Below are positions 1 to 57,973 of a DNA stretch of 64,000 nucleotides, in pieces. A program made the position numbers and the translations under genes. The notes beneath the pieces were generated by a model. That model was not told the origin of the DNA, made no database searches, and saw only the letters and a list, made by a program, of their open reading frames with translations. Location: IMG/VR virus record IMGVR_UViG_3300045988_183727; one strand, given 5' to 3'. This DNA is from a virus. Position 1 is the stretch's first letter, and the number at the start of each line of letters is the position of its first letter.

Positions 1-3000
1 GAACCTATCAAGGCAGCACACGATTATATCTGGGACATGATTAACCAGCAGGCACAGATTCCAAGTTTCGCTGTTGGCAGACCTACTCAGACATATAACG
101 ATTTCGAGTTGGTATGGGACGGCACTTCTTGGTCGTTGACAAGAACCGACACCAACAGAGTCCTGAGAAATTTTGACGACTTCGAGTTCAGCCTGCCCGG
201 TGTGAGCACCTTCCAGAGTGGAAACAATCTTACGATTACAGCCACGCCGGAAGCCGCTAAGAGTATGTTGAACGGCATTGTATCGTACCCCACCGAGGGC
301 AATGTGATTGACCCTGATAGCGTCAACGCTTACCTTCTCGTCGCGGGTGGCAGCAAGCAGGATTGCGTTGCTCTTAACGGCACCCCCGACCCTGTTACTG
401 CCTACGTCCGCGCCAAGGTCACAAAGACTACCGGCGATTTGAACATTGCCAAGACCTCCGAGGATGGCAAGGTAGGCGGCGTGAGTTTCACGGTCACGGG
501 CCCCAACGGTTACAGCAAGACTGTGACCACTGGTGCAAACGGTAAGATTGCCATTACCGATTTGCAGCCCGGTACTTATACCGTAACGGAGAATACACCC
601 GACAATTACATCCCGACGCAGCCCCAGTCCGTAAACATCGCAATCGGCGATTTTAAGACGGTGAACTTCAGCAACGTGCTGAAGAAGGGCGCCGTAAAGG
701 TGACTAAGACCTCAGAGGATGGTCAGATTGCTGGTCACACCTTCCGGCTGTCCGGCACTTCCGCAGCAGGTACGGCTGTCAATATGACGGCTGTTACGGA
801 TGCCAACGGCGTGGCTACCTTCAATAATGTTCCTGTGGGCAACAACTATAAGCTGGAGGAAATCAACACCGCAGCGAAGTATGTTGTTCCTGCGGTGCAG
901 GCTGGCGTGGTGGTTGAGTACAACACCAGCACCCCCGCTCAGTTTGAGAACAAGCTGGCTCGCGGCAATCTGAAAATCACGAAGACCTCCGAGGATGGCT
1001 TCGTGGCAGGCATGACCTTCCGGCTGACCGGTACGTCTATCTCCGGTGCAGCAGTCAATGAAACTGCTTCTACCGACGAGAACGGTGTCGTCATGTTCAG
1101 AGAAATCCTTATCGGTAATAACTATACCGTACAGGAAATCAACACCGCCGAGCGGTACGTTGTTCCCGCTGTCCAGAGCAATGTGACCGTCACGCTCAAC
1201 AACACCACCAGCTTGAACTTCCATAATAAGCTGGCTCGCGGCGCCGTTGAGGTTAAGAAGACCTCCGAGGACGGCAAGGTCGCTGGTATCACGTTCCGCC
1301 TGTCCGGTACTGCTATCAACGGCGAGACGGTGGATATGACCGCCGTGACCAATGACGCCGGAGTTGCCACCTTCAACAACGTTCTGATTGGCAATAACTA
1401 CAGCGTTGAGGAAGTGAACACGGCTGCCAAGTATATCGTTCCCGCTGTGACAAACGGCGTGAAGGTTACTCTGGATAACACCACCCCCGTGAATGTCTAC
1501 AACAAGCTCAAGCGCGGCGACCTGCGCGTTACCAAGACCTCTGAGGACGGCATGGTCGAGGGCATCACCTTCCGGCTGCATGGCACTGCCATCTCCGGCG
1601 ATGCTGTTGACCTGACTGCTACCACCAACGCTGACGGTATTGCCATCTTCAAGGATGTCCTGATTGGCGACAACTACACGCTGGAGGAAGTCGATACGGC
1701 GGTGAAGTATGTTATTCCTGCCGTGCAGACAGGTCTCGTTGTGGAGTTCCAGAAAGTTACCGACACCGCTGTGACTAACGTACTGAAGAAGTGGAAGGTC
1801 ACTGTGGAAAAGACGGACGCCGAGACTGGCAACATCCCTCGCGGCGATGGTGTCTTTGAGGGTGCTGTGTACGGTCTCTATAAGGGTGACGAACTGGTGA
1901 AGGAGTACGTTATCGGCAGTGATGGCAAGTTCACCACTGACGAGTACATCTGCGGCTATGATTACACCATCCGTGAAATCAAGGCGCCCACTGGCTATCA
2001 GATTGATGAGGGCGTGTATCGCGTTGGCGCCGAGCCGGAGAACTACCGTATCGAACACAACGTTGCTCCCCAGATTACCTCTGTCGAGGTCATCAATCGC
2101 GGCACATTCGCCATCACCAAGTTCATCTCCGACGGAACCTCCGGTCCCGCTAAGTTCGAGGGCGGTGCAGAGTTCAAGTATTGGCTGCAGTCCGCCGGCT
2201 CTTACGAGAACGCTAAGGATGACGAGCGCGGTATCCTGACGACCAACGACTTGGGTTACAGCGGCAAGTCTATCGAGCTGCCCTACGGCACCTATGTGGT
2301 GCATCAGACCAAGGCCGGCGATAAGGGTGCGGGGCTCGCGCCTGAGTTCACCGTTCTGGTTGGCGAGGTTGACCACGACCATCACGACTTGGCTGTCAAC
2401 AACGGACCTATTACCGCGTATCTGCGCGTTGTGAAGGTCGATGAGCTTGACGGCGAGGTCATTCCTTGGGGTGGTGCAAAGTTCCAGATTTACGACCCTG
2501 ACGGGAACAAGGTGTCCCAGAAGGTCACTTACCCCACGGTAACTTATATTGATACATTCGAGACAAATGATGAGGGTTATTTTGTGACCCCGCTGGTTCT
2601 GCCTTACGGCGAGAACTATCATCTGGTCGAAATCGTACCCCCGAAGGGTTATGAGCTGATGGATACCCCGATTACCTTCAGCGTTACGCCCGATACCATT
2701 TCTTTGGATGCCGAGACCGGTCTGGTGACTGTGAATATCATCGCCGAGGACGAGGCGGTGACTCCCAAGGTCAAGACTACTGCAACCGACAAGGAAGGCA
2801 ACAAGGAAATCGTTCCGGCCACCACCGTCACTATCGTCGATAAGGTGGAATGCACCGACGTTATCCCCAACAAGACCTATACGGTCGAGGGATATCTGGT
2901 GGTTAAGTCCACCGGCGAGCCTCTGCTGGACGCCGAGGGTAATCGCATTACCGCCTCTAAGACCTTCAAGGCTGAGGCCGACTTCACTGGCTTTGTGGAG

Positions 3001-4800
3001 CTGGAGTTCACCTTTGATGCGTCTCTGCTGGGTGGCGAGTCCATCGTTGTTTTCGAGGACCTGAAGCGCGGAAACCGTGTCGTTGCTACCCATGCTGACA
3101 TCAACGATGTTGACCAGACCGTTGTAATCCTGAACCCCAAGATTGGCACCACGGCCAAGAACGCTGTTGGCGGTAAGGAGTTCATGCCTCTGGCTGATGT
3201 GATTCTGGTGGATACCATCTCCTACGAGAATATGCCCGTGGGTAAGGAGTTCATCGCTATCGGTACGCTGATGGATAAGGCCACCGGCAAGCCTGTTACC
3301 GATGCCAACGGCGACCCCGTCACCTCTTACAAGGTGTTCACTCCCGAAGCTGCCACTGGTACGGTGGATGTGAAGTTCGTCTTTGACGCTTCTAAGCTGG
3401 CCGGCAAGTCTCTGGTGGTATTCGAGCGTGTGTATCTGGGTAACGAGATTGTTCCCGGCGACTCCAATAAACCCGTGTTTGTGAGTCACGAGGATATCAA
3501 CGATGAGGGGCAGACCGTCACCATCGGCGTTCCCGAAATCGGTACAAAGGCCGTGAACAACGCCACCAACGGCAAGACCCTCGACCCCGAATCCCGCGCT
3601 GAAATCAAGGATACCGTGTCCTATAAGGGCCTGATTGCTGGAGAGAAGTACACTGTCTCCGGTAAGCTGATGAACAAGGCCACCAACGAGCCCCTGAAGG
3701 ATAAGGACGGAAAGGAAATTACCTCCTCCGTTACCTTCACCGCTGAGGCGTCCGATGGCACCGTTGACGTGTTCTTCGTGCTCGATGCATCTCTGCTGCG
3801 TGGCCAGTCTATCGTTGTATTCGAGTCCCTGCAGTACAAGGACATTGAAATCGCAGTTCATGCCGACATCAACGATGTTGACCAGACTGTGACTGTCAAC
3901 AGCCCTGAAATCAAGACCACCGCTAAGAACGCTGCTGATGGCAAGAAGGAATTCTGGGCCTACAGCAAGGTCGAGCTGGTCGATACCGTGTCCTATAAGG
4001 GCCTGATTGCCGGCAATAAGTACACCGTAATCGGTAAGCTGATGGACAAGGCGACAGGTGAGCCTGTTCTGGGCCGCAACAACAAGGAAATCACCGCCAC
4101 TACCGAGTTCGAGGCCAAATCCTCTGACGGTACTGTGGATGTGAGTTTCGTGTTCGATGCATCCATTCTGGGCGGTAAGACGCTGGTCGTGTTCGAGACC
4201 CTGACCCGCAATGGCACTACGGTCGCAACTCACGCCGACATCAACGATGTTGACCAGACTGTGACCATCAAGCGCATCCCGACCTATTCCGGTCCGAGCA
4301 TTTCCACCACCGCTACCTTCGATGGCAAGGAGAAGAAGAACTCCGTTGCTGGTAAGAACGTAAAAATCGTGGACACCGTCAACTATACCGGCCTGACTGT
4401 GGGCAAGACCTACGTACTGGTTGGTACGCTGATGGATAAGGATTCCGGTGTTGCCCTCAAGGACAATAAGGGTAATCTGGTAACTGCTACTACGACCTTT
4501 ACGCCCAAGTCCTCCAACGGTGCTGTGAATGTTACGTTCAAGTTCGACGCATCCAAGCTGAAGGACCATGCGCTCGTGGTGTTCGAGACTCTGTATGAGG
4601 GTCGTGCTGAGGCGGGTAATGTCATTGCTACCCACAACGACCTGATGGACGGTGCTCAGACGGTGTATTTCCGCGACAGTGTCCAGACTGGCGATGAGGG
4701 CATCGGCCTGTGGGCCATGCTGGGTACGTTCAGTGCCATTGCTTGCTGCGGCACTGCGGTGTTCATGTTCCGCCGCAAGAAGGAGTATGGCGCCGAGTAA
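1..4800 (+). CDS. Giant cell-wall-anchored adhesin (5' end outside the window): SpaA/Cna-B-like Ig repeats, then VaFE / Thr-Gln ester-bond repeats, then a C-terminal SVQTG sorting signal
   Basis: Frame 1 is open from base 1. The track M at 37 has no signal peptide, so the N-terminus lies upstream. Repeats carry TKTSEDGxxAGxTFRLxGT...NYxxEExNTAxKYVxPAV, and later repeats end in SLVVFExL...ATHADINDVDQTV (HxDxxDxxQ). The tail is SVQTGDEG, a hydrophobic helix, then RRKKE. Confidence 0.9.
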   Translation, partial: EPIKAAHDYIWDMINQQAQIPSFAVGRPTQTYNDFELVWDGTSWSLTRTDTNRVLRNFDDFEFSLPGVSTFQSGNNLTITATPEAAKSMLNGIVSYPTEGNVIDPDSVNAYLLVAGGSKQDCVALNGTPDPVTAYVRAKVTKTTGDLNIAKTSEDGKVGGVSFTVTGPNGYSKTVTTGANGKIAITDLQPGTYTVTENTPDNYIPTQPQSVNIAIGDFKTVNFSNVLKKGAVKVTKTSEDGQIAGHTFRLSGTSAAGTAVNMTAVTDANGVATFNNVPVGNNYKLEEINTAAKYVVPAVQAGVVVEYNTSTPAQFENKLARGNLKITKTSEDGFVAGMTFRLTGTSISGAAVNETASTDENGVVMFREILIGNNYTVQEINTAERYVVPAVQSNVTVTLNNTTSLNFHNKLARGAVEVKKTSEDGKVAGITFRLSGTAINGETVDMTAVTNDAGVATFNNVLIGNNYSVEEVNTAAKYIVPAVTNGVKVTLDNTTPVNVYNKLKRGDLRVTKTSEDGMVEGITFRLHGTAISGDAVDLTATTNADGIAIFKDVLIGDNYTLEEVDTAVKYVIPAVQTGLVVEFQKVTDTAVTNVLKKWKVTVEKTDAETGNIPRGDGVFEGAVYGLYKGDELVKEYVIGSDGKFTTDEYICGYDYTIREIKAPTGYQIDEGVYRVGAEPENYRIEHNVAPQITSVEVINRGTFAITKFISDGTSGPAKFEGGAEFKYWLQSAGSYENAKDDERGILTTNDLGYSGKSIELPYGTYVVHQTKAGDKGAGLAPEFTVLVGEVDHDHHDLAVNNGPITAYLRVVKVDELDGEVIPWGGAKFQIYDPDGNKVSQKVTYPTVTYIDTFETNDEGYFVTPLVLPYGENYHLVEIVPPKGYELMDTPITFSVTPDTISLDAETGLVTVNIIAEDEAVTPKVKTTATDKEGNKEIVPATTVTIVDKVECTDVIPNKTYTVEGYLVVKSTGEPLLDAEGNRITASKTFKAEADFTGFVELEFTFDASLLGGESIVVFEDLKRGNRVVATHADINDVDQTVVILNPKIGTTAKNAVGGKEFMPLADVILVDTISYENMPVGKEFIAIGTLMDKATGKPVTDANGDPVTSYKVFTPEAATGTVDVKFVFDASKLAGKSLVVFERVYLGNEIVPGDSNKPVFVSHEDINDEGQTVTIGVPEIGTKAVNNATNGKTLDPESRAEIKDTVSYKGLIAGEKYTVSGKLMNKATNEPLKDKDGKEITSSVTFTAEASDGTVDVFFVLDASLLRGQSIVVFESLQYKDIEIAVHADINDVDQTVTVNSPEIKTTAKNAADGKKEFWAYSKVELVDTVSYKGLIAGNKYTVIGKLMDKATGEPVLGRNNKEITATTEFEAKSSDGTVDVSFVFDASILGGKTLVVFETLTRNGTTVATHADINDVDQTVTIKRIPTYSGPSISTTATFDGKEKKNSVAGKNVKIVDTVNYTGLTVGKTYVLVGTLMDKDSGVALKDNKGNLVTATTTFTPKSSNGAVNVTFKFDASKLKDHALVVFETLYEGRAEAGNVIATHNDLMDGAQTVYFRDSVQTGDEGIGLWAMLGTFSAIACCGTAVFMFRRKKEYGAE
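454..1732 (+). repeat. In-frame tandem Ig-like (Cna-B/SpaA-type) domain repeats within the adhesin gene
   Basis: About five ~93-aa units, each opening with (T/K)KTSEDG and containing TFRLxGT, GNNY and NTAxKY(V/I)VPAV. Borders are approximate. Confidence 0.7.
2659..4672 (+). repeat. In-frame tandem VaFE / ester-bond (Cpe0147-like) domain repeats within the adhesin gene
   Basis: About seven ~100-aa units, each with TTA(K/T)..., VDTVSYxGL, GxLMDKATGEP, VxFxFDAS, LVVFE and HxDINDxxQTV. Borders are approximate. Confidence 0.7.
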
Positions 4801-4837
4801 GCAGCTCACCATGTGGTGAGTAAACCCCAAAGTGAAT

Positions 4838-4876
4838 GCAGAGGGCGCAGACCTTGTGCCTGCGCCCTCTGCTTTT
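4838..4876 (+). terminator. Rho-independent terminator after the adhesin gene
   Basis: The 13-bp perfect stem gcagagggcgcag / ctgcgccctctgc has a 9-nt loop and is followed by TTTT. Confidence 0.8.
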
Positions 4877-4926
4877 ACAAATATAACAGTAGGGGAGAGC
4901 ACCTCCCCGGAAAGAGAGAAAAGGAA

Positions 4927-5235
4927 ATGAAATACTGTAATAATTGTGGCAAAGAGGTCTCTGATAACGCTGTTGTCTGTCCTTTCTGCGGCTGCGCCGT
5001 GGCGAGCAAGAATGTCGAGGTGGACAAGCCTTCTACCGGTCTGAACATCCTGTCGTTCCTCATCCCGCTGGTTGGCCTGATTCTGTACCTGTCGTGGCAG
5101 AATTCGACCCCCATTAAGGCGAAGGCGGTGGGGAAGTGGGCACTGATTGGATTCTGTGTGGCAGTCGGTCTGAGCATCCTTGGCACCATCCTTTCCGGCG
5201 CACTGATTTCCAGTGCTATCGGAGCTCTCTATTAA
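4927..5235 (+). CDS. Zinc-ribbon membrane protein
   Basis: The internal ATG at 4927 follows gagaaaaggaa. The N-terminus has CNNCG...CPFCG, followed by two or three hydrophobic helices. The part of the ORF upstream of 4927 overlaps the terminator. Confidence 0.75.
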   Translation: MKYCNNCGKEVSDNAVVCPFCGCAVASKNVEVDKPSTGLNILSFLIPLVGLILYLSWQNSTPIKAKAVGKWALIGFCVAVGLSILGTILSGALISSAIGALY

Positions 5236-5293
5236 GAGTTAAAGAGGAGAAGGGGAAACCCTCTCCTCTTTCGACTTTACAGAAAGGTGAAAA

Positions 5294-6016
5294 ATGGGAA
5301 ATAAAACAAAACAAGACAAGGCGTTGTACGACAACAATGAAAACAAGGTCGAGGATGAAACGAGTGTCCTCCTGCGTTTTTTCGTGCTGGCTGTAGTTGT
5401 TCTCGCTGGAATTTTACTTATCCTTTTGGCCGACTGCTATGGATGGTTTGATTTCTTAGAAAAGCCCATGAATGCGGCAGGTCAGTTCTTGAAGGATAAT
5501 TGGATGAAGGTATGGATAGGGCTTATAATTGTAGCACTTCTGCTTTGTTATCTTTCTTTCGAAATAGGCGGTGCAGTTTTCGCCAAGAAGCGTCGTCTTG
5601 AAATTGAGGCAAATGTAGTGGGAAGTGTTCCAATTTCACGTAAAGACTTTCTGCGTGATTGGGATTCCGCGCCCAGCCGGAGGGGGATGAATGCGTGTTC
5701 CAATGGAGCTTTGTTTGGATATAAATATGTCTTCTGTTCAGGTGTGTATGTGATTGCGGAGGTGGATGAATTGAATCGTTGTCTCAATGCGGTTTTCATT
5801 GGTTCGTCCTCCGTCGGAGCGTGCTGCTCACGGGCGTATGCTCATCTTTCGTGCAAGGCTGCAGCTTCTGTCGCTGTGTGTGACGCTGTTCGGGCAGGAT
5901 GTGAGCTTTATGTTGTGTTCGTTCCGTGTCAAGCAGAGTATGTGAACGAAGTGAAAGGCGCTGTTAAAACATATCTTGAGAGCGCTTCTGAGCTCATAAG
6001 ATTTGAAAATAGGTAG
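5294..6016 (+). CDS. Hypothetical membrane protein
   Basis: ATG preceded by aaaggtga. There are two N-terminal TM helices. The C-terminal part (GVYVIAE-x10-VFIGSS) is only faintly GIY-YIG-like. Confidence 0.6.
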   Translation: MGNKTKQDKALYDNNENKVEDETSVLLRFFVLAVVVLAGILLILLADCYGWFDFLEKPMNAAGQFLKDNWMKVWIGLIIVALLLCYLSFEIGGAVFAKKRRLEIEANVVGSVPISRKDFLRDWDSAPSRRGMNACSNGALFGYKYVFCSGVYVIAEVDELNRCLNAVFIGSSSVGACCSRAYAHLSCKAAASVAVCDAVRAGCELYVVFVPCQAEYVNEVKGAVKTYLESASELIRFENR

Positions 6017-6125
6017 ACTCTTTATCGCGGATGACTTTTGGGATAAAAAAGTTTTCGCAAAACACGCTGGTTTTCCGACTTCTCACATGGTAGAATAATT
6101 AAAAACAAAGAAGAGGAGTTTTCAA

Positions 6126-7637
6126 ATGCCGATGGATGCCGATTACGCGCTCTTGAAAAAGTGGAGCAACTGGTTCGACCGGAAAAACGGCAGCGGTTAT
6201 GGGCCAGCAAACATATTGCAGCGGAGAACAATGAACACTGCAATCGTAACTGTGAGTACACTGCAAAATATTCCTTTTACTGAGTTATCTTCTTCGCTGT
6301 ACTTCTTTTGTAGTGATATAGATAGCAAGGAGTTCTCTCGTCTGTATGAGTCTCAGGTGGAGTTGGCCGGTGCCAACCCTGACAAGTTTATCAAGGGCCT
6401 TCACAGCTTTTTCAATTCCATGGCCAAGAGAATCAAGAACGAATCCGAATACGCCCTGTTCTTTGATTTTCTCATGGCTGCATCTCGCCTTCTTTTTACC
6501 GCAAAGGAAGAAAAACAATCTAACATCAACATTGATGTGGTGTACTGTTACTTCAGTATCCTCCTTCAGCAGACGGAATACCTGCGTCCCGATAAGTTCG
6601 ACTTAACCAAAGTCGTCTGCGGTTTGAAAACGACCGGCGAACTGTTGGTCATGGAAGATACCTACCCCTTCTTGGATAAGCCTGCTTTTGAGTTGGAGCG
6701 CCGGAATCTTGATGGAAAGGTTCGTTCCCCCATGGAGCTGGATGCTCAAATCAAGGAAATTTATAGCAAGTGGGGATATGGCTACATCCAAAATAAGGAG
6801 GATTTGGAGCGCTACACGCAGGTAGACAGGATTTTTTCCAACCAAATAGCGGGTATGGCTGCGCTCATCAATGAATACACCTTCGACATACTTCCACAGC
6901 ATTGCTTTTCTGCCATCGCAAATAAGTTCTTTTCCGTTGTTGCGCTGCCTCCGATGCTGCCTGATGAGATGCATGAGCTGCTGCGGACGAAACGAAGTTC
7001 AACGCTTCCTGCCAACGGCGCAGTGTTTGAGTTTACAAGCGACAAAGACATTATCCGGAAGGTCTTGCTCAAGGAAACTCTATACGGCGATTCCATCTAT
7101 ATGCTTTACCGTCTGGACACCTGTGAGGGAGACTTGAGCGGGTACTATGATACTAAGACAGGGTTCTTCTTTTCGGTTTTCCTCGATTCAGAGGACAGAG
7201 TCATCTACGGGAACATAAGGCGGCTCGTTTTAACTCTCTACGCCTGTGCCGTAACGCGCAAAGGCCCAAAACTGCTGTCGCAACTAAGCAGCCATGTCAA
7301 GTATCTGTCCCTCGACAATAAGGGCGTCCGGAAATTTGATGAGGTATCCATAAGCTACTACGGTCGCGGAGGACGCCTCAGGAACGCCTACGACGGCGCG
7401 GAAGCGGCAGGGAAGGATGGATACACCCGTAAGGGCGACGAAGCCTATGAGGAGGCTCCCAGAGCCATTCAGGGCTTTATCCGAAAGGTGGGCGAGGGGA
7501 GAACGCCGTCCCGTGAGGCGGTGGAGTACGCGGAGGCTCTTGGGTACTCCCTCGCGCCTGACGAAACCTATGTAAAGCCATTCATCCGTAGAGTTCTTCG
7601 CCTGAAGCAAAAGGAAGCTGAGAACACAAATGGATAA
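6126..7637 (+). CDS. Hypothetical protein (503 aa)
   Basis: Long ORF with RBS aagaggag. No family recognised. Confidence 0.7.
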   Translation: MPMDADYALLKKWSNWFDRKNGSGYGPANILQRRTMNTAIVTVSTLQNIPFTELSSSLYFFCSDIDSKEFSRLYESQVELAGANPDKFIKGLHSFFNSMAKRIKNESEYALFFDFLMAASRLLFTAKEEKQSNINIDVVYCYFSILLQQTEYLRPDKFDLTKVVCGLKTTGELLVMEDTYPFLDKPAFELERRNLDGKVRSPMELDAQIKEIYSKWGYGYIQNKEDLERYTQVDRIFSNQIAGMAALINEYTFDILPQHCFSAIANKFFSVVALPPMLPDEMHELLRTKRSSTLPANGAVFEFTSDKDIIRKVLLKETLYGDSIYMLYRLDTCEGDLSGYYDTKTGFFFSVFLDSEDRVIYGNIRRLVLTLYACAVTRKGPKLLSQLSSHVKYLSLDNKGVRKFDEVSISYYGRGGRLRNAYDGAEAAGKDGYTRKGDEAYEEAPRAIQGFIRKVGEGRTPSREAVEYAEALGYSLAPDETYVKPFIRRVLRLKQKEAENTNG

Positions 7638-7643
7638 GCGAAA

Positions 7644-7677
7644 AAGACCGGTGGTGAGCCCATCGGTCTTTTTTTTC
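7644..7677 (+). terminator. Rho-independent terminator; an adjacent second hairpin (7683-7707) serves the convergent gene
   Basis: aagaccg / cggtctt stem followed by T8. It is followed by the ggaagca...tgcttcc hairpin. Confidence 0.7.
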
Positions 7678-7766
7678 AAAAAAGGAAGCAACCCTTGGGC
7701 TGCTTCCTGAGAAATACTGTAAGTATCGAATATTTAATTTTGAAATGTATTTGTCTTTGCAGGTTG

Positions 7767-8333
7767 CTATGCGTCCAGCTCGTACACGATAAGCCCAATA
7801 CTATCAATAAACTGATAGTGGTTCGCATATTCACGCTGGATGAATTCCTCTCCCTTTGCCCTGCCCCACTTATTCTCATCACAGATATCCGTAATCATGT
7901 CGGACATGGATTCGTAGATACTGGCGATAGGGGTAACAATGACATTTTCGCGCCTAAACAACCACATCCGCAGCACCTCGCGGGGAGAGAAAGCCCGACA
8001 GAGACTCTGCTCTTCGGGGACAAGGTCGTGCGGCGCACGGGTGCCGTAAATTTCGTGCTGCTTCACAAGAGTCTTGAGGCGAAGCTCTGCCATGTCGAGA
8101 AGCCGCTTCGCTGTTTCGGGGTCGTCCCCTCCAAACTCCATAATGGATATCATCACATCCATAAGGGAAAGAGGGTCGTTGACTGCCATTTCTACAGACT
8201 TCCGGACAGCGTCGCTTGTGCTGCCTGTGAATTGGCAAACGTCATCAATGAGGTCGTCATTATCTTTCTTGTTCTGTTTTTCTTCGTTGCTGGTTCCGTG
8301 TTCATAGATTCTACTGTTCTGTTTTCGCTGCAT
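7767..8333 (-). CDS. Hypothetical protein (188 aa)
   Basis: ATG with RBS gaaggagg. No family recognised. Confidence 0.7.
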   Translation of the reverse strand: MQRKQNSRIYEHGTSNEEKQNKKDNDDLIDDVCQFTGSTSDAVRKSVEMAVNDPLSLMDVMISIMEFGGDDPETAKRLLDMAELRLKTLVKQHEIYGTRAPHDLVPEEQSLCRAFSPREVLRMWLFRRENVIVTPIASIYESMSDMITDICDENKWGRAKGEEFIQREYANHYQFIDSIGLIVYELDA

Positions 8334-8549
8334 TTCCCGTGACCTCCTTCTACGCTGCTACTTTTTCCTTTCTTCCTTTGAAAACGATGACAGTGGCGTG
8401 TTTTGTTCGCCATTCGAGATATTGCTCCCGCGTATTGGGCTGGCAAGAGTACATGGAAATAGCGCTGACAAGCCGCTGCTTCTATGCCGCAAAAGTGGAG
8501 TAAGTGCTTCCTGCGGCAGTGAAAGTCGTCTGCCAGCGCTTATGTTCCA

Positions 8550-8592
8550 TATTCAATATCACTCTACCACGATTACATAATTTTGTCAAGTT
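8550..8592 (-). promoter_or_regulatory. Sigma-A-type promoter (member of the conserved promoter family)
   Basis: The minus strand reads cTTGACAAAATTATGTAATCGTGGTAGAGT, about 220 nt upstream of the 7767-8333 start. Confidence 0.5.
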
Positions 8593-8839
8593 TACGACTT
8601 GTGAAAATTGGAACAATCATGTCTTTCGTGTTGACATTATTCCTAATATAAGCCGTGTTAATTTGTGGGATGTTACAGTTTCGTGTAACATCTTTTAATC
8701 ATTTGTGAAAGGATTCTGCTCGTTTTTGTGCTAAATGTAGATATTCTTACCAAATTTTACGTTTTTAGGCGTTTTGCTTTTCTCCCTTACGGCTTGAATG
8801 ATTTTGGCGTATGAGCCACCCTTTTTACGCCCTGCGTAC

Positions 8840-8869
8840 TTGACATTATTTTATGTTCGTGCTAATATG
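8840..8869 (+). promoter_or_regulatory. Sigma-A-type promoter of the conserved TTGACAttATTTTATGTTCGTG-TAATAT family
   Basis: TTGACA at 8840-8845, TGcTAATAT at 8861-8869. Nearly identical to the promoters at 17260 and 47961. Confidence 0.7.
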
Positions 8870-8890
8870 AAATCGAAGAAATAAGCCCTT

Positions 8891-11206
8891 TTGGGAGCTT
8901 TTAATGCCTGCTGTGAAAGGTCGTGTTTCCACATTAAACTAATACTGGCTGAAAAGAAACAGCTTGGCGATTTGATTGCCCAAGCTATTCCCGGTACAGC
9001 ACATTATGACCGTGGTGCAACCGTGAAAGGTGAATATGTAATCGTCTGTTCGCAAGGACATCTTCTTTCTCTGAAGGAGCCTGAGGACTATGATGTCGCG
9101 TTTGGAAAATGGGAGTTGTCTGCCTTGCCGATTTATTTTCCGAACTGGCAAACAAAGGTGAAAGAGTATAACGGGAGAGGCGTGAATCCCAACGAGCGCG
9201 TTTCGCGCATTGGGGAGCTTTTGAAGCAGTGTTCCTGTGTAATCCACGCAGGAGACCCTGATGAAGAGGGGCAGCTTCTTATTGACGAGCTGCTTCGCTG
9301 GCACGGTTATCGTGGACCCGTTTACCGTTTGGCGACGGGCGACACCTCTATCCCTGCGCTGCAGCGTGCGCTCAATAACCTCAAGGACAACCGTCTCTTT
9401 GAGAACATGGGGTGGTCTGCTTACGCACGGAGCGTTGCCGACCTTATGGTTGGTGTGAATATGAGCCGATATTATTCGCTGGTCAACAATGCTTCGCTGA
9501 CAGTTGGACGTGTGCAGTCTCCTACTCTTGGGCTTGTGGTCGAGCGTGATATGCTTATCGAAAACCACGTAAAAACTAAATACTATGAGGTCTCAGCGAA
9601 GACTTCTATTGAGGGTAAGGTCGTTGAGACGAAGTACAGGCCGAAGAAAGATGACCCGCATCTGACTGATGGGCTTATCTTGGATAGACCTTACGCGGAG
9701 AGCAAGTCTGTGATGATTTCCGGAAAACAGTTCTCAGGGGCTGCCGTTACAAAAAAGATTTCCAAAGAACAACCGCCTTTGCCGTTTGATATGCTGGAAT
9801 TGCAGGGCTACTGTTTGAAGAGTTTCGGCTACAAGCTGGACGACACCATGGAAATCACGCAGTCTTTACGCGATAACTACAACGCCATTACATATAACCG
9901 TACTCAGGTGCGATATCTCCCCGAAAACTACTTTGCGGAAGCTCCTGCCACCTCCCGTACTGTTATCGCAAACATAAACACGGTAGGAAAGGGAAATTTC
10001 AACCCTATTCTTGGTATGGACTTCAAGACGAAGGGGCGGTGCTTCGACGATTCTAAAATTGAAGCGCATTTTGGTATCATTCCTCAAAATGTGAGTCTCG
10101 ACCTCAACAAGATGACGGAGCGGGAACGAAACGTATATCTTGCCATTTGTAAGTATTATCTTATCCAGTTCTTTCCGCCCGCTGAGAAGGAAACAACAAA
10201 GCTGGTTGTCCCGCTGCCGGACGGCGCCACTTTAGAGGCGTCCAGCACTGGTGTGCTGAAACCCGGTTATCTCGTGATGATGCGCGAAGGTGTAGATACG
10301 CCCACAGCGTTGAGTATGATACCCGCCGGCAGTTACGGTGCTTTTGTTTCCGACGCTCAGGTCTTAGAGAAGGAAACAAATCCCCCTCCTCGTTACACAC
10401 AGTACACACTGGCGAAGGATATGAGCCGTATTGCCAAGTATGTTACCGACCCATTCATCAAGAGCACTCTGCTGAAGAAAGATGCCGACGTGGAAGAGAA
10501 TAACGGGGCTATCGGCACCAGCGCAACACGGGACCAGATAATCTCCGGTCTCATTTCAAGAGGGTTCTTGCAGGAAAAGGGGAAGTCCCTTATTTCCACT
10601 CCACTTGGACGCGAGTTGTATCGCATTCTCCCCGATTCCCTTCGTGGACCGGACCTCACCGCCTTGTGGTGGGTCATTCAAGAGGAGATACATGAGGGGA
10701 AGGCGACGCCGGAGAAGCTGGAACAAAACGTTCTGGCTATGCTCAAAGATTTCCTGCAGCAACCGCATCCTAAAGTGGACCCCAACATTGTCCCGACAAG
10801 GAAGGGATTCACGCCGATAGGAGTCTGTCCTCGCTGTGGTGGGAACATCATAGAGGGGAAAATGGGCTTTGGTTGTTCCAACTGGAAGAGTGGATGTAAG
10901 TTTACCATCTGGAAAAAGCCAAAACCGACTCTGTTCCAGCACATCACATTCACAGAGAAGGATGTCAAAAACTTTCTCGCTGGAAAGCCTGTCCATAAGA
11001 CGAAGCTGACCAAGAAGGACGGCGGTACATTTGCGGCAGACCTTGTGATGGATGACAGTCAGCGCAGTGATTGGGGCCCGAACTTTACGCTTCAGTTCAA
11101 CAGCACCAAACCCGCAGGAGCCTCCTCGCGCTCTGGTGGTGGTCGTTCCGGTAGTCGCAGTACGTCGCGTGGTTCTTCGCGGAGTCGGCGCTCTGGACGT
11201 CGGTGA
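8891..11206 (+). CDS. topB: DNA topoisomerase III (type IA) with a C-terminal zinc ribbon and an RS/RG-rich tail
   Basis: Toprim N-terminus (KLILAEKKQLG, DPDEEG), topoisomerase IA core, then CPRCGG...GCSNWKSGC and SRSGGGRSGSRSTSRGSSRSRRSGRR. The start is uncertain: the track uses TTG at 8891. Confidence 0.9.
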   Translation: MGAFNACCERSCFHIKLILAEKKQLGDLIAQAIPGTAHYDRGATVKGEYVIVCSQGHLLSLKEPEDYDVAFGKWELSALPIYFPNWQTKVKEYNGRGVNPNERVSRIGELLKQCSCVIHAGDPDEEGQLLIDELLRWHGYRGPVYRLATGDTSIPALQRALNNLKDNRLFENMGWSAYARSVADLMVGVNMSRYYSLVNNASLTVGRVQSPTLGLVVERDMLIENHVKTKYYEVSAKTSIEGKVVETKYRPKKDDPHLTDGLILDRPYAESKSVMISGKQFSGAAVTKKISKEQPPLPFDMLELQGYCLKSFGYKLDDTMEITQSLRDNYNAITYNRTQVRYLPENYFAEAPATSRTVIANINTVGKGNFNPILGMDFKTKGRCFDDSKIEAHFGIIPQNVSLDLNKMTERERNVYLAICKYYLIQFFPPAEKETTKLVVPLPDGATLEASSTGVLKPGYLVMMREGVDTPTALSMIPAGSYGAFVSDAQVLEKETNPPPRYTQYTLAKDMSRIAKYVTDPFIKSTLLKKDADVEENNGAIGTSATRDQIISGLISRGFLQEKGKSLISTPLGRELYRILPDSLRGPDLTALWWVIQEEIHEGKATPEKLEQNVLAMLKDFLQQPHPKVDPNIVPTRKGFTPIGVCPRCGGNIIEGKMGFGCSNWKSGCKFTIWKKPKPTLFQHITFTEKDVKNFLAGKPVHKTKLTKKDGGTFAADLVMDDSQRSDWGPNFTLQFNSTKPAGASSRSGGGRSGSRSTSRGSSRSRRSGRR

Positions 11207-11219
11207 TGGTGCATCATAG

Positions 11220-11249
11220 TTGACATTTTAACATAGTCTATGGTATAGT
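11220..11249 (+). promoter_or_regulatory. Sigma-A-type promoter upstream of the YdjM-like gene
   Basis: TTGACA at 11220-11225, and TGGTATAGT with TATAGT at 11244-11249. Confidence 0.6.
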
Positions 11250-11279
11250 ACAAGTGTTCTATTTAACAAAGATGTACCA

Positions 11280-11291
11280 GAACATTTGTTC
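11280..11291. promoter_or_regulatory. LexA (Cheo/SOS) box GAAC-N4-GTTC
   Basis: aGAACATTTGTTCa is a perfect Gram-positive SOS-box core, lying between the promoter and the YdjM-like start. Confidence 0.6.
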
Positions 11292-11384
11292 AAGATGCTT
11301 GTTATTTACCTGTGATTTCCGAGATAAATAACAAGAATCTTGTTATTGTGCTATACCCCGTTCAAAACATTAGGAGGTGAACCA

Positions 11385-11933
11385 TTGGACGGGCGAACCC
11401 ATACTTTTGCCGGATACACGGCAGGATTACTTCTTGTGCAGGCACAAATCTTCGGAGCATTTGGACTTCCGGCGCCGGACGGCATTCTTCCGTGTGTCGG
11501 AATGGTTGGACTGTCCATGGCGGGCTCCCTCGCGCCTGACATAGACCTTCCGCGTAGCAGAGCAGGACGACGCAATAGACCCGTGTCCGCTGCCGTAAAC
11601 GCTCTTTTTGGGCATAGGGGGATTACCCATGCGCCCTTCATTTGGGCGGCGCTGTACGCGGCTTTGAAGCTGCTTTTGGGTGCTGAATGGTTGACCTATA
11701 TCCTTGCGTTTGTTATTGGTGGAGCAACTCATATTTTGCTCGACCTTTTCAATAAAGCCGGCGTTCCTTTGCTTTGGCCGATATCCCATCGCTTCTGGAT
11801 ATTCGGTATAAGGACGGACAGTGCTGCTGGTCACGCATTTTCTTTTGTCTTGGCGTGTGTCGCAGTTCTTTGTACCATCAATTTTTTCTACGAAGCCGGC
11901 GACTACTTAAAGGAGGCGATTTGGTTTGTTTGA
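11385..11933 (+). CDS. YdjM-family membrane-bound metal-dependent hydrolase
   Basis: TTG start at 11385, 7 nt after AGGAGG. Multi-TM protein with DIDLPRS and GHRGITHAP motifs. Confidence 0.7.
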   Translation: MDGRTHTFAGYTAGLLLVQAQIFGAFGLPAPDGILPCVGMVGLSMAGSLAPDIDLPRSRAGRRNRPVSAAVNALFGHRGITHAPFIWAALYAALKLLLGAEWLTYILAFVIGGATHILLDLFNKAGVPLLWPISHRFWIFGIRTDSAAGHAFSFVLACVAVLCTINFFYEAGDYLKEAIWFV

Positions 11934-11976
11934 CGCTACAACAACAAAGTCTGAAAACGCACAATGGGGTGAGCGC

Positions 11977-12636
11977 ATGGCGACATATATTGCGCTGATG
12001 CGGTGGAACGGCTACTCTGTGCAGGAAATTGCTGATACCTTTGGCATTTCCCGGCAGCAGGTGTATCTGCATCTGCAGAAGATTCCTTTTCCTAATGATA
12101 AGGCCAAAAGGTATCCTCGTCCCGCACTGAATGAAGAGCAGGTGAGGGCTGTGGTCGGTTTTTTTGTCGCGAATAAGGACGCGCCCATATCCGCTGCTTC
12201 AGAGACAACGGGCATTCCTGTTGCGGATGTTGTGATGCTTTGCAACAATATCCGTGGCGCTCATTCGTGGTATTTCAGCGAGGGTTATCCTCTCATTGCG
12301 GATTATCTGAACAGGGAGGGAGTTACGCTTGATTATCTGGAACAGATGGCTGGCGTTCAGGGACTCGCACAGTATATTTTTTCCACATACCCCTACAAGG
12401 AGATGCCGAAGGCTCGTGCTGCTGCGGTAGCCGCAGTAATTGACGTTCCCGCAGACAAGCTGATGGAGGTGGCTGTTGCGTCCGGAAATATGGCCACAGG
12501 TGTGGCAACATCGGATGAAATGGCATTGGTCATCGGCTCAGTAACCGGACGCGAAGCGAACTCGCGGCTCTTTTTCCGTGGACGCCGTATCAAACCTTCT
12601 TTCTCTGCAACTGGAGGTGGTTCTTGTGGTGAATAA
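11977..12636 (+). CDS. Hypothetical HTH protein
   Basis: The ATG at 11977 is in frame with the TTG at 11926. The N-terminal YSVQEIADTFGISRQQVYLHL is helix-turn-helix-like. Confidence 0.6.
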   Translation: MATYIALMRWNGYSVQEIADTFGISRQQVYLHLQKIPFPNDKAKRYPRPALNEEQVRAVVGFFVANKDAPISAASETTGIPVADVVMLCNNIRGAHSWYFSEGYPLIADYLNREGVTLDYLEQMAGVQGLAQYIFSTYPYKEMPKARAAAVAAVIDVPADKLMEVAVASGNMATGVATSDEMALVIGSVTGREANSRLFFRGRRIKPSFSATGGGSCGE

Positions 12637-13159
12637 ATCTGGACCTGACCTCCAGAGCGATATCGTCGTCGATACTCGCGATTATCCTGAAGCTCTGCAG
12701 CGCCTCACGATGAAGGGCATCTTGATGGCCGGTGCCATTGTGGTTATCCTCATTGCAACGCTTTGCCTGCAGAAGTCCGAATTGAAGGCAATGCTTCCCT
12801 TTGCCGGCGTTATCCTCTTGCTGGCAGGATATGTTGTCTATTCTGCCCTACACTTGCGAACAGAATGGCAGAATGGGGACATCGTGTGTCATATTGCTTT
12901 GTGCCGCTCTGTGCGGTCTCGGTCATGGCCACGGGACAGCAAAGAGGTGGTTTTTGTAACAGGGGAAGACGAAGGTCAAGAGGCCCATGTGTTTAATCTT
13001 CCTGACCGCAAGAACAAAGACCTGTATCCCGGCTTTAAGTACACCATCTATGTTCGTGCAAGAGATAATACGCATCTCTTGGCCTACAAAGAAATCTATG
13101 TGCCTTCCGATGCGAAGGACACCGAAGAAGTCAAGTCGGAGCTTTCTTCAGAAAAGTGA
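12626..13159 (+). CDS. Hypothetical membrane protein
   Basis: GTG at 12626 lies 5 nt after GGAGGTGG and overlaps the upstream stop. An alternative ATG is at 12710. Two TM helices. Confidence 0.6.
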   Translation: MVNKSGPDLQSDIVVDTRDYPEALQRLTMKGILMAGAIVVILIATLCLQKSELKAMLPFAGVILLLAGYVVYSALHLRTEWQNGDIVCHIALCRSVRSRSWPRDSKEVVFVTGEDEGQEAHVFNLPDRKNKDLYPGFKYTIYVRARDNTHLLAYKEIYVPSDAKDTEEVKSELSSEK

Positions 13160-13188
13160 AAAAAGCCGGCCTACGGGCCGGTTTTTTT
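13160..13188 (+). terminator. Rho-independent terminator
   Basis: aaaagccggcc tac gggccgg followed by T7. A second hairpin at about 13196-13230 serves the convergent gene. Confidence 0.75.
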
Positions 13189-13240
13189 GCGTTAAGAAGA
13201 GGCCTTGCCTTGTGGCAAGACCTCTTTCGTGTTGTGAAAG

Positions 13241-13687
13241 TTAATTGAAAAAGAAGGGCCTTCCGATTTCTGCATCCTCCTGAGGTTCAGACTCTTCCGG
13301 AGTAAAGCCGTTTTCCGGCGTATTGGCCTCGTTCACAAGGCCATCATCGCTGTCCTCGTCTTCCGTGGCTTCCGCTGCAACAGGGGATACACCCCAGTTG
13401 AGAATAGCCTCATCCTCCTCGGACAGTGCAATACGCTGCCTTTCAGCGGTATCGCGGATTTTCTTGACCATTTTTTCGCGGAAGTTTTTCATGGCGGACT
13501 GGATGCGTGTCGCGGCCTGTTCATCTACAACGATAGCAGGCTTTTTACGGCTTTTTGCCGATACCGTAAAGGCGTTATCCTTTGCAGCGATATCTAACAT
13601 CGTATTGATGTCTGCGACTGCTTTCAGTCCGTCTGAGACCTGCTGGAGTGCCTGCTGCTGCTTGGAATCACTGATAATTGCGGGCAT
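13241..13687 (-). CDS. Hypothetical acidic protein (148 aa)
   Basis: ATG with RBS aaaggagag. Acidic C-terminus. Confidence 0.7.
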   Translation of the reverse strand: MPAIISDSKQQQALQQVSDGLKAVADINTMLDIAAKDNAFTVSAKSRKKPAIVVDEQAATRIQSAMKNFREKMVKKIRDTAERQRIALSEEDEAILNWGVSPVAAEATEDEDSDDGLVNEANTPENGFTPEESEPQEDAEIGRPFFFN

Positions 13688-13711
13688 GATTTATCTCTCC
13701 TTTTCTTTTTT

Positions 13712-14398: not shown

Positions 14399-14421
14399 AC
14401 GGGATTCCTCCTTACTGATTT

Positions 14422-15915: not shown

Positions 15916-15937
15916 AGGGCATCATCTTCCTTTCTGT

Positions 15938-16393: not shown

Positions 16394-16411
16394 ACAACTC
16401 TCCCAATTCTA

Positions 16412-16843: not shown

Positions 16844-16898
16844 AGTTTTGTCCTTTCAGTGTGGAGGCGTAGTTGATAGCCTCAGTGGGTTTAGTAGG

Positions 16899-53820: not shown

Positions 53821-54615
53821 TTGGGAAACACAAGCAAAAAGCACGTAAAATGGGGGATTTTCAAGACTGCACTTTTTACGTTCCTGTTCGTCGCAGTATC
53901 CGTTTTCTACTTTCTCTCCACCAACGTGACACTCGCACAGGCCGAAGAACGCTCGAACCACGAATCACCTCCTGCAGCAGAGGTTGCCGCCCAGATGGAC
54001 GACACCAAGCTGTCAGAAGAAGCGCAGCAAGATGTTTTGGTGCTGAAGGAAGGAATCCTCGACCCGCTTTCCGACATCACGGAAGCAGAGAACTCTGAAG
54101 ATGACCCCGACGCCGTGGAGGAAGTACAGGAAGTCGTTCCGACAGTCTGTTCCTACTGCGGCTCTGAGAACCATAGTTCCTCAATCTGTGCAAAGAGGTC
54201 TATCGCCAATGGTGCCTATGGGCGCTGGGTGATTCCGTCTGTTGGCTGTAATGTAGCGGCCTACTCGTGTAACTGGGATGCAGACCAATCCTATGTTCAG
54301 GAAATTACTGACAGTTCCGACAGTGCAGCTTTCTTGACTTGCGGCGGCGTTGGTGTTCTTGCGGACCACAATAACCAAGGTTTCTGTGGACTTTCCAATA
54401 TTTCTGTTGGCGCAAAAGCCTACATGGATTTTGGTGATGGTGCAACTTACTACGAGTGCTATCAGGTTGAATATGGACACAATACCGGCGAAAAGATGCT
54501 CGATGGAAATGGAAACATAATGAGCTACAGCAACTATTCTTCCGGCACCGTGATTTGCTACACCTGCCTTGACCACTGGACCAACATTTACATCACTTAC
54601 TGGACGCCGGTATAA
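53821..54615 (+). CDS. Sortase-like membrane-anchored protein, paralogue 1
   Basis: N-terminal TM, acidic linker, CSYCGSENHSSSIC. Sortase-type strands are WVIPSVGCNVAAY, LADHNNQGF and VICYTC. No obvious catalytic Arg. TTG start follows aaagggga. Confidence 0.55.
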   Translation: MGNTSKKHVKWGIFKTALFTFLFVAVSVFYFLSTNVTLAQAEERSNHESPPAAEVAAQMDDTKLSEEAQQDVLVLKEGILDPLSDITEAENSEDDPDAVEEVQEVVPTVCSYCGSENHSSSICAKRSIANGAYGRWVIPSVGCNVAAYSCNWDADQSYVQEITDSSDSAAFLTCGGVGVLADHNNQGFCGLSNISVGAKAYMDFGDGATYYECYQVEYGHNTGEKMLDGNGNIMSYSNYSSGTVICYTCLDHWTNIYITYWTPV

Positions 54616-54654: not shown

Positions 54655-55455
54655 GTGAAAACGAAATTCAAAATCCCTCGGTGGGCACTCTTCACCGTTA
54701 TCATTCTGTCCTTTATCGGTGGTCTCTTTGCCATCTCCATGCTGCCTGCTTTCGCATCACGTGAAAGCTCTCCGCCTTTGGCAGTAGCAGAAGCCGCGCA
54801 GAACGAGGAAAAGGACGCAAATTCTGATGCTCAGACTCCCGAAGCAAACGAGACATCCGATGAGCATGGAAGCACTGAAACTCCCGTAGAGGACGAGCCT
54901 CAGGCAGACGATGCTGTCGTCGTTGAAGTGACTCCCTCCGAAGAGCCTGTTCAGGAAACTCCAACCACCTGTTCCTACTGCGGCAGCGTAGAACACACCA
55001 AAGACTACTGTGCCGTCCGTGCCGTGGACAATGGCGCCATTGGACGGCTCCGGATTCCCTCTGTCGGTGTTGACGTGGCTGTTTACGACGTCACTTGGTA
55101 CTCTCTGCAGCACACCACCGAAGGCGATAACTACGCGCAGGCCGTTACAGATGCATGGGACAGCGCCGCACAAATCGTCTATCTCGGCCAGACCGTTATT
55201 GGCGACCATAATAATCAGGGCTTCTCCGCCATCAACAACTGTGCCGAGGGCACTTACTCCTACATCGACATAGGCGACTCTGTCCTGACCTATGTTTGTA
55301 CCGGCATCCAGCATGGTCGCAACCCCGGTGGCTATCTTACCGGAGCCGATGGCGATAGCATCTATACCTCTTACTTCAATCCCAATGGTCTGACGCTGTA
55401 TACCTGTCTCGACCACAACTTCAATGTTGCCCTTGTGACATTCCAGCCTGCTTAG
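54655..55455 (+). CDS. Sortase-like membrane-anchored protein, paralogue 2
   Basis: GTG start follows aagaaagga. Contains CSYCGSVEHTKDYC, LRIPSVGVDVAVY, IGDHNNQGF and LTLYTC. Confidence 0.55.
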   Translation: MKTKFKIPRWALFTVIILSFIGGLFAISMLPAFASRESSPPLAVAEAAQNEEKDANSDAQTPEANETSDEHGSTETPVEDEPQADDAVVVEVTPSEEPVQETPTTCSYCGSVEHTKDYCAVRAVDNGAIGRLRIPSVGVDVAVYDVTWYSLQHTTEGDNYAQAVTDAWDSAAQIVYLGQTVIGDHNNQGFSAINNCAEGTYSYIDIGDSVLTYVCTGIQHGRNPGGYLTGADGDSIYTSYFNPNGLTLYTCLDHNFNVALVTFQPA

Positions 55456-57199: not shown

Positions 57200-57973
57200 A
57201 TGAAAACAAAGAAAATTTCCCGCCGCGCCGTTACGCTGGCTGCCTTTTTGCTGGTAAGTGCATCATCTTTACATATGGCTTGTGCAGAGGCTTCGGTGCC
57301 TTTCGATTACTTTACTGATGACCTCTCTGTGTCCACTGACGCCGTTGCGAAGGAAGATAAATACCGGCCTCCTGAGTGGTTCACAAAAGAAAATGTTGTA
57401 AGTGAAGTGGACTCAGACACGCCTCCGGGGGAGACTCCTACCCCTGCGGGCGAACCTTCTGTGGCGACCCCCGTGCCTGAGCCCGCACCGGAAACCGCAG
57501 CAGCCTGCAGCTATTGCGGCAGCGCAGGGCACTCGCAGAATAGGTGTGCCGTTTACGCTGTCGAACAGCGAGGTGCCGTTGGGCGTTGGTCTATCCCTTC
57601 TATTGGAATAGATGTCGCTTGCTTCACCTATGTGCTTGGAAGCGATTCCTTCGAGTACGGACAGGCAATTTGTGACGCTGCCGATAGTGCCGGCTACAGT
57701 GCGTATGGGAGCCAGTATCTCATTGCAGACCACAACTATCAGGGCTTTTCTGCCATAGCCAACTGCGCGGTCGGTGCGGTGGGATATATGGATTACGGAA
57801 ACAGTCGAACAGAATATGTTTGTACTGGGGTGGAGTATGGGCACAATGAAGGCACGGAACTGACTGATAATGACGGAAACGATGTTGCGTACAACAACAG
57901 TGGAGGAATTACCCTTTACACCTGTTACAACGGCTGGCAAAACGTCGTCATAGCGTATTTTACTCCGGTTTAA
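57200..57973 (+). CDS. Sortase-like membrane-anchored protein, paralogue 3
   Basis: CSYCGSAGHSQNRC, WSIPSIGIDVACF, IADHNYQGF, ITLYTC. There is no convincing RBS; the IscB element abuts its 5' end. Confidence 0.5.
   Translation: MKTKKISRRAVTLAAFLLVSASSLHMACAEASVPFDYFTDDLSVSTDAVAKEDKYRPPEWFTKENVVSEVDSDTPPGETPTPAGEPSVATPVPEPAPETAAACSYCGSAGHSQNRCAVYAVEQRGAVGRWSIPSIGIDVACFTYVLGSDSFEYGQAICDAADSAGYSAYGSQYLIADHNYQGFSAIANCAVGAVGYMDYGNSRTEYVCTGVEYGHNEGTELTDNDGNDVAYNNSGGITLYTCYNGWQNVVIAYFTPV

Follow-up and report, generated by a model that had tools for sequence, protein, structure and literature searches.

The stretch examined here, 64,000 nucleotides filed in IMG/VR as virus record IMGVR_UViG_3300045988_183727 and referred to below as the window, corresponds to bases 1-64000 of the ENA contig ERZ27260744:k119_132504 (118,078 bp). 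It opens within the gene of a large surface adhesin whose product ends in a predicted sorting signal built on the pentapeptide SVQTG. About 49 kb from this gene, in a neighbourhood of DNA-processing genes, lie three paralogous genes whose products have a predicted sortase fold. An earlier note on this DNA had linked the two, proposing that the element brings its own adhesin together with dedicated anchoring enzymes. Our analysis assigns the paralogues to a sortase-fold family that lacks the canonical arginine, and tentatively favours a sortase of the host as the anchoring enzyme. The features concerned are listed below.

1..4800, + strand: TIE-type surface adhesin, 3′ 4.8 kb of the gene, with 7 SpaA-like and 5 T-Q ester (VaFE) domains
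4678..4692, + strand: pentapeptide SVQTG, in which Val takes the place of the Pro of the clostridial (S/P)PxTG motif, followed by an Asp that is conserved in relatives (TGD)
4693-4701, + strand: DEG, between SVQTG and the hydrophobic segment
4702..4770, + strand: hydrophobic segment of 23 residues, IGLWAMLGTFSAIACCGTAVFMF, part of the predicted sorting signal
4771..4797, + strand: basic tail RRKK (4771-4782), then EYGAE; the stop codon is at 4798-4800
53821..54615, + strand: paralogue 1, 264 aa, no Pfam match at E≤0.01, all family invariants present
54655..55455, + strand: paralogue 2, 266 aa, the protein used for the structure model
57200..57973, + strand: paralogue 3, 257 aa, Pfam Sortase E=0.0051, directly adjoining paralogue 2 in most relatives

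The adhesin and its predicted sorting signal

Translation of the plus-strand open reading frame (ORF) ending at 4800 gives the adhesin C-terminus as ...YFRDSVQTGDEGIGLWAMLGTFSAIACCGTAVFMFRRKKEYGAE*. Sortase substrates of C. difficile have been recognised by a pentapeptide located 17-45 residues from the C-terminus, a hydrophobic segment and two or more basic residues in a row (PMC4155245). In the adhesin, SVQTG starts 40 residues before the C-terminus and is followed by the 23-residue segment and by RRKK, in agreement with this definition in both position and composition. The tail described in the earlier note, RDSVQTGDEG followed by a hydrophobic helix and RRKKE, is thus borne out by the translation, by its position and by the conservation of TGD described below. 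SVQTG does not match the consensus motifs that have been shown experimentally to be processed (LPXTG, and (S/P)PxTG for clostridial SrtB), Val being found at the Pro position. A six-frame scan of the window revealed no second ORF combining a motif, a hydrophobic segment and a basic tail. Taken together, the three parts of the tail very probably make up a sorting signal of sortase type in which Val replaces Pro.

The adhesin gene is cut by the contig start: bases 1-36 are free of stop codons, the ORF extends past the first base, and the Met at position 37 is not the true start. The N-terminus and signal peptide therefore lie outside the window. The part of the protein that is present matches Pfam TQ (4e-154) and SpaA (5.5e-72), and NCBIfam VaFE_rpt (1e-178). 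A full-length orthologue of 1,916 aa (L055:4928-10678), whose C-terminus is 100% identical to that of the window adhesin, is composed of a classical Sec signal peptide (MKHKKMRGVVAMLLTLVMVVGMLPTSVYA/DD), an acidic linker, a thioester domain in which the motifs YCIEP and TQEVIW are found, and a SpaA/TQ stalk. Domain matches over L055:4928-10675 are to TED (PF08341, 1.4e-9), TED_2 (8e-8), SpaA (seven) and TQ (five). Since the orthologue carries a thioester domain on a stalk of SpaA and T-Q ester domains, the window adhesin is a TIE adhesin. The adhesin adds one more representative to a known type, and its signal, an ordinary variant, is of limited interest alone. The protein contains 11.6% Thr and 8.9% Gly.

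Recurrence of valine at the proline position

The same adhesin C-terminus is found on 8 IMG/VR contigs with 93-100% identity. SVQTGDEG is unchanged across these contigs, the adjoining membrane segment being variable. In an alignment of 12 homologous C-termini, no sequence departs from the T and D of TGD, and the G is nearly invariant. The invariance of SVQTGDEG and the conservation of TGD therefore indicate that the match is not due to chance. The motif position is mostly occupied in relatives by xPKTGD, with KVQTGD, TVKTGD and PVVTGD also represented, and further Val variants occur in separate lineages: the T-Q repeat proteins of contigs L090-96 (143-222 kb) end in SSVKTGQ, and that of L100 (92.7 kb) ends in ESVQTGD. 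Such recurrence of Val motifs in several independent lineages, exactly at the motif position, suggests from the aligned sequences that selection acts on the motif itself. Because TGD is conserved and Val variants recur, SVQTG is very probably a genuine form of the clostridial signal that has been selected.

Large IMG/VR contigs filed as viral (L090-L096, L100, L102-L112; 60-230 kb) commonly carry T-Q ester repeat adhesins. The sorting motifs of these adhesins vary with the group to which the host is likely to belong: those of the form xPKTG(D) and xV(Q/K)TG are clostridial-looking, and LAKTG and LAHTG are actinobacterial-looking, of the class E sortase type. The signals would therefore seem to be matched to the sortases of the hosts.

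Three paralogues with a predicted sortase fold

The three paralogues share 35-40% pairwise identity and a common layout. A hydrophobic N-terminus, present in all three and predicted as a helix at residues 9-28 in the structure model, is followed by a linker of some 70 residues, acidic and disordered, by a CX2CX4HX4C knuckle, and by a domain some 140 residues long with the motifs GRxxIPSVG, D..DSA, DHNNQGF, Y.C, GHN and (L)YTC. Matches of paralogues 2 and 3 to Pfam Sortase (PF04203, peptidase C60) have E values of about 4e-3 to 0.0051, with scores of 17.5 and 17.0 bits that fall short of the gathering score (26.6); the NCBIfam class C sortase model gives 18 bits against a threshold of 160. No other ORF of the window carries a sortase-like TLxTC-type motif or a Pfam Sortase signal, and the paralogues are, as the earlier note had it, the only sortase-fold candidates of the window.

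Profile searches of PDB sequences retrieved B. anthracis SrtA (5e-4) and S. aureus SrtA (1.6e-4). The (L)YTC motif aligns with TLITC of both enzymes, and the DH of DHNNQGF, located at the end of a predicted strand (179-184), aligns with GH of B. anthracis SrtA. A single-sequence hhalign comparison with S. aureus SrtA places the His 6 residues off, so that the catalytic His is assigned from the HMMER alignment together with the secondary-structure prediction. The sequence evidence for a relationship with sortases is weak and consistent.

An AlphaFold2 model of paralogue 2 gave a predicted local distance difference test score mostly between 80 and 92 over the domain, with dips around residues 221-240. 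The best 50 Foldseek matches of this model in the PDB are all sortases, which settles the question of fold raised in the earlier note in favour of sortases; a fold search of BFVD gave one weak match. The modelled fold is the eight-stranded β-barrel of sortases. We are highly confident that the paralogues are active-looking Cys/His enzymes of sortase fold, secreted or anchored in the membrane and facing the outside of the cell.

The CX2CX4HX4C elements lie just before the sortase-like domain, at approximately 54148-54189, 54970-55011 and 57512-57553. Their spacing is that of the retroviral zinc knuckle, and among PDB sequences the profile also matches the knuckles of Arc and Ty3 Gag. It is odd to find a zinc knuckle on an extracellular protein.

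A wider family lacking the canonical arginine

A HMMER scan of 1.84 billion cluster representatives recovered 1,092 proteins of the family at E≤1e-10, from which 149 representatives, about 20-46% identical to the modelled paralogue, were aligned. Conservation reaches 90% or more at about 18 positions. They include the putative catalytic residues and their neighbours, D184 (149 of the 149), H185 (148), T250 (149) and C251 (148), as well as R131 (139), Q162 (141), D166 (144), A171 (148), Q188 (146), F190 (147), C215 (142), G221 (145) and N223 (145).

A His-Cys-Arg triad is the hallmark of sortases (PMC11231552). In the family, the last strand starts with N257 or its equivalent where sortases have the catalytic Arg: 115 members carry Asn, 11 Asp, 9 Ser, 3 His and 2 Arg. 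Two residues further on Thr, Ile or Trp is found, with Arg in 8 members. Neither Arg nor Lys follows the Cys in any of the three paralogues. The invariant Arg of the family, R131, precedes strand 1. The proposal that the paralogues are sortases therefore holds for the fold and for the His and Cys at homologous positions, but not for the canonical Arg, and the scores stay below the Pfam gathering score. Only 22 of the 149 representatives match Pfam Sortase at E≤0.01, and the family has no curated model despite its clear fold and invariant active-site residues.

A hydrophobic N-terminal signal or anchor is present in 133/147 members, and the zinc knuckle in 33/149. Some representatives are fused to SH3_3 (10), Big_2 (7), Flg_new (5), SH3_4 (4) or SLH (2) domains, or to choline-binding repeats. 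Such wall-binding or surface modules are typical of wall hydrolases and untypical of membrane-anchored sortases. Conservation of GHNTG..LTD, the equivalent of the substrate-recognition loop, extends over the family and the three paralogues and suggests one common substrate rather than three specificities. This Arg-less, partly zinc-knuckled family of sortase fold is what is new here.

Genomic neighbourhood and co-occurrence

On this plasmid, one DnaJ-like and one DUF1064 gene precede the paralogues and a serine recombinase gene follows them; beyond it lie genes for SSB, a RecD2-like helicase and a YqaJ exonuclease. DnaJ-like and DUF1064-like genes are also found upstream of the family gene in L024. 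Elsewhere a MobL relaxase of 695 aa is encoded 16-45 bp upstream of the family member in two different elements (L064:7869-10825 and L119:3560-6538), a type IA topoisomerase is encoded upstream in L051-53, and DNA methyltransferase genes flank the family gene in L022. The family is thus recurrently linked to DNA-transfer genes. In 13 GTDB genomes, all from uncultured Clostridia or Oscillospiraceae, the family gene is single-copy and its neighbours are unrelated housekeeping genes. No sorting-signal ORF was found within 10 kb of the family gene in 15 distant loci. Paralogue 2 had no tblastn match among PLSDB plasmids or INPHARED phages.

That adhesin and paralogues belong to one mobile element is confirmed by their presence on the same contig both in the window and on 7 of the 8 IMG/VR contigs that carry the SVQTG adhesin. 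All these contigs belong to one plasmid lineage, and the co-occurrence consequently counts as a single event; among the contigs compared, no independent instance was found of the co-occurrence that the earlier note proposed to check across genomes. On the contigs of other lineages with Val signals (L090-96 and L100), neither protein family matches nor a degenerate DNA pattern, estimated from the frequencies in the 149-member alignment to cover two thirds of the family diversity, revealed a family member. The same pattern found new distant members elsewhere. Within the limits of pattern sensitivity and contig completeness, Val signals therefore do not need the family on the same replicon.

The element is a large plasmid

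The region just upstream of the window equivalent is available in the related contig L113 (IMGVR_UViG_3300029310_000398, 649-19690). It encodes, in order, two RepL-like proteins, a VWA protein, ParA and ParB, a TIE protein of 3,808 aa, a small secreted protein and the SVQTG adhesin. The VWA protein (974 aa) has GBS104-like tip-pilin Ig domains and ends in ...HAPQTGD, a hydrophobic segment and RRKK; the 3,808-aa protein, a second TIE protein, ends in ...SPKTGD, a hydrophobic segment and KRKKNK. The element thus encodes three proteins with sorting signals, APQTGD, SPKTGD and SVQTGD. Related contigs span 175-192 kb, and about 25 contigs of the lineage are filed as viral in IMG/VR. Because two RepL genes, ParA and ParB lie upstream of the adhesins, we identify the element as a RepL/ParAB megaplasmid of roughly 190 kb. 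The type IA topoisomerase listed below, with PLSDB relatives that are mostly on conjugative plasmids, also favours a plasmid. A jumbo phage, considered in view of the IMG/VR matches, was set aside on the same grounds. The element could still be a phage-plasmid. The other features recognised in the window are as follows.

8891-11206: type IA topoisomerase, with 4,366 of 5,000 PLSDB relatives on conjugative plasmids
18150-19586: flotillin/Band_7 protein
19630-19717 and 48300-48840: five tRNA genes, Ser-TGA, Glu-CTC, Thr-CGT, Thr-TGT and Gly-TCC
20714-22903 (729 aa), 25181-27586 (801 aa) and 30729-33100: examples of ORFs without a match
41651-42229: PemK/MazF toxin
45572-47725: RecG-like helicase
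49044-50288: TnpB (IS605 OrfB)
55455-57187: IscB element of 1.7 kb between paralogues 2 and 3, with an RRXRR domain (NCBIfam guided_IscB, 6e-68)
58360-59937: large serine recombinase

When about 40 window ORFs were compared with Pfam and PHROGs, no phage structural, type IV secretion system or canonical sortase genes were recognised, and most large ORFs between 20000 and 45000 had no match to either collection at E≤1e-3. The serine recombinase (58.4-59.9 kb), 151 bp beyond which one contig of a second sample stops, was considered as the end of the element and rejected, synteny with other relatives running on past it. Most related plasmids have an empty IscB site, with 5 bp in place of the insert, whose termini are inverted repeats of 21 bp that differ at one position (GGCTATTTAAGATTTGATGTG ... 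CACATCAAATCTTAAATATCC). The 204 nt preceding the iscB start probably encode the guide (omega) RNA; this stretch has no Rfam match. The plasmid tRNAs may aid translation of the giant adhesins, a role suggested by the richness of the adhesin in Thr and Gly. Near the adhesin genes Rfam detected tRNAs only, and no riboswitch such as the c-di-GMP riboswitches of C. difficile.

Which enzyme anchors the adhesin

The explanation that we favour, though tentatively, is that a host sortase anchors the adhesin and that the paralogues do another wall-directed job tied to plasmid transfer or establishment. After Sec export, the hydrophobic segment and the RRKK tail would hold the adhesin in the membrane, and a sortase would then cut between Thr and Gly and join the adhesin to peptidoglycan. 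The anchoring enzyme would most likely be the housekeeping sortase of the host. A precedent is given by two SPKTG adhesins encoded on conjugative transposons of C. difficile, CD0386 (CTn1) and CD3392 (CTn7), for which anchoring by chromosomal SrtB, the single sortase of that host, has been shown (PMC5569036). The paralogues would more likely be engaged in local peptidoglycan or surface-protein processing in connection with the transfer or establishment of the plasmid. A role other than anchoring is favoured because the Arg is absent, members of the family are fused to wall-binding modules, and relaxase and topoisomerase genes are linked to them. It is also favoured because the substrate loop is conserved, sorting-signal neighbours are lacking, and no family member was detected beside the other Val signals. 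It is nevertheless possible that the paralogues anchor the adhesin.

Several observations weigh against host anchoring. C. difficile SrtB, the only housekeeping enzyme of this type that has been tested, failed to cleave NVQTG peptides in a Förster resonance energy transfer assay (PMC4155245) and in a high-performance liquid chromatography assay (PMC4371152), so that a host sortase may reject the Val-type motif. The statement in the earlier note that SrtB is known to process NVQTG is contradicted by these two independent studies. Three ancient paralogues (35-40% identical) stand against three signals (APQTG, SPKTG and SVQTG), a suggestive match in number. The His and Thr-Cys are invariant in the family, and the Asn could supply the hydrogen bond that normally comes from Arg. 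Finally, the negative co-occurrence result is limited, since it was obtained with one DNA pattern covering about two thirds of the diversity, and elsewhere with 10-kb flanks only.

These observations lend some weight to a second explanation, which we consider unlikely: the paralogues would be dedicated Arg-less sortases by which the adhesins that the plasmid itself encodes are anchored or polymerised, among them the SVQTG protein, which ordinary clostridial SrtB would be unable to process. There would possibly be one enzyme per signal, and display would be independent of the host. The failure of C. difficile SrtB to cleave NVQTG (PMC4155245, PMC4371152) is in keeping with such enzymes. So are the sortase fold with its conserved His and Thr-Cys, the N-terminal signal or anchor of most family members (133/147), the presence of enzymes and adhesins on the same plasmid, and the equal numbers of paralogues and signals. 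One of the three putative substrates, with its VWA and GBS104-like Ig domains, resembles a tip pilin. Pilus islands typically carry two or three class C sortases. Much is nevertheless difficult to reconcile with dedicated sortases. The canonical Arg is lacking and the Pfam score falls under the threshold; other members are fused to wall-binding modules, unlike canonical sortases; the substrate-loop region is nearly identical in the three paralogues, which argues against three specificities; and co-occurrence is confined to one lineage. The self-sufficient display proposed in the earlier note is also disfavoured by the 49 kb and the DNA-processing genes that set the paralogues apart, by the absence of sorting-signal or pilin neighbours for family members elsewhere, and by the Val signals on contigs of 143-222 kb without a detectable family member.

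Less probable again is a third explanation, in which SVQTG is degenerate and cleaved by no sortase, the adhesin remaining tethered in the membrane by its helix and RRKK stop-transfer tail or being shed. The lack of NVQTG cleavage by SrtB and the doubts about CbpA as a substrate (PMC4155245, PMC4371152, PMC5569036) are compatible with it, proteins with SPSTG and SPQTG are likewise not anchored in vivo (PMC5569036), and TIE(pLS20) acts in conjugation without a sorting signal or sortase (PMC8092201). A degenerate motif would, however, hardly be expected to keep SVQTGDEG invariant across plasmid variants while the adjoining membrane segment changes, to retain TGD in distant homologues, or to recur with Val at the motif position in several independent lineages. 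That the paralogues are inactive, decayed relics of sortases, as the missing catalytic Arg and the Pfam score below threshold might suggest, is highly improbable in view of about 18 positions conserved at 90% or more over 149 divergent representatives (D184/H185 and T250/C251 in 148-149 of them), about 1,100 clusters at E≤1e-10, and the retention of every invariant by the three paralogues.

Relation to known systems

Whichever explanation holds, a family of about 1,100 clusters lacks a curated model, and the plasmids of about 190 kb that carry it here are filed as viruses in IMG/VR. It is conceivable, though doubtful, that the family forms a new enzyme class with a His-Cys-Asn site, frequently associated with relaxases or located on megaplasmids and acting in the Gram-positive wall, either as sortases of Val signals (xVQTG) that housekeeping SrtB does not cut, in which case the plasmid could display its three adhesins unaided, or as a hitherto unrecognised kind of wall-remodelling or surface-editing enzymes used by mobile elements in transfer. 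If the paralogues anchor Val signals, this would answer what processes the NVQTG and SVQTG motifs ignored by SrtB, and would define a seventh, Arg-less class of sortases of relevance to sortase-based protein ligation. If they act on the wall, they would represent a new type of enzyme tied to plasmid transfer among gut Clostridia.

The window adhesin resembles CD0386 and CD3392 of C. difficile, which are large adhesins of clostridial mobile elements with a signal peptide and an xPKTG-type signal, and its sister protein on the plasmid ends in SPKTGD, with the same motif as these two proteins. It differs from them by Val in place of Pro, by its TIE architecture with T-Q ester repeats, and by its location on a RepL/ParAB megaplasmid of an uncultured host. 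The VQTG core is shared with another clostridial surface adhesin, C. difficile CbpA (CD3145, NVQTG). NVQTG was merely proposed as a sortase site, and CbpA is probably not a true substrate (PMC5569036); since SrtB fails to cleave NVQTG (PMC4155245, PMC4371152), CbpA offers no precedent for processing of a Val motif.

In architecture the protein resembles the class II thioester TIE adhesins of Gram-positive bacteria (TIE-pLS20, BaTIE, EfmTIE86 and SaTIE), which likewise have a signal peptide, a thioester domain and an isopeptide or ester stalk, and are encoded by plasmids or conjugative elements. TIE-pLS20 promotes mating (PMC8092201); unlike the window adhesin, it lacks a sorting signal and does not depend on sortase, whereas BaTIE, EfmTIE86 and SaTIE use LPXTG.

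The family of the paralogues is set apart from sortases of classes A, C and E (for example L. rhamnosus SrtA 7cfj, C. diphtheriae SrtA 6bwe and S. coelicolor SrtE1 5cuw) by the absence of the last-strand Arg and by invariants of its own: GR before strand 1, D..DSA, DH.NQ.F, a second Cys and GHN. Identity to the class A and E matches is 16-21%, and reaches 23% with one class C sortase. Moreover, some members carry a CCHC knuckle and others wall-binding fusions, and none lies beside a substrate.

Mobile elements that carry adhesins together with sortases are already known. In the NELoc-1 locus of C. perfringens pNetB, for example, a putative sortase is found (PMC11677781), and surface proteins and sortase-type genes share a mobile element as they do here. 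In loci of that type, however, the sortases are canonical and adjoin their substrates, whereas the enzymes of the present plasmid are divergent and lie 49 kb from the adhesin.

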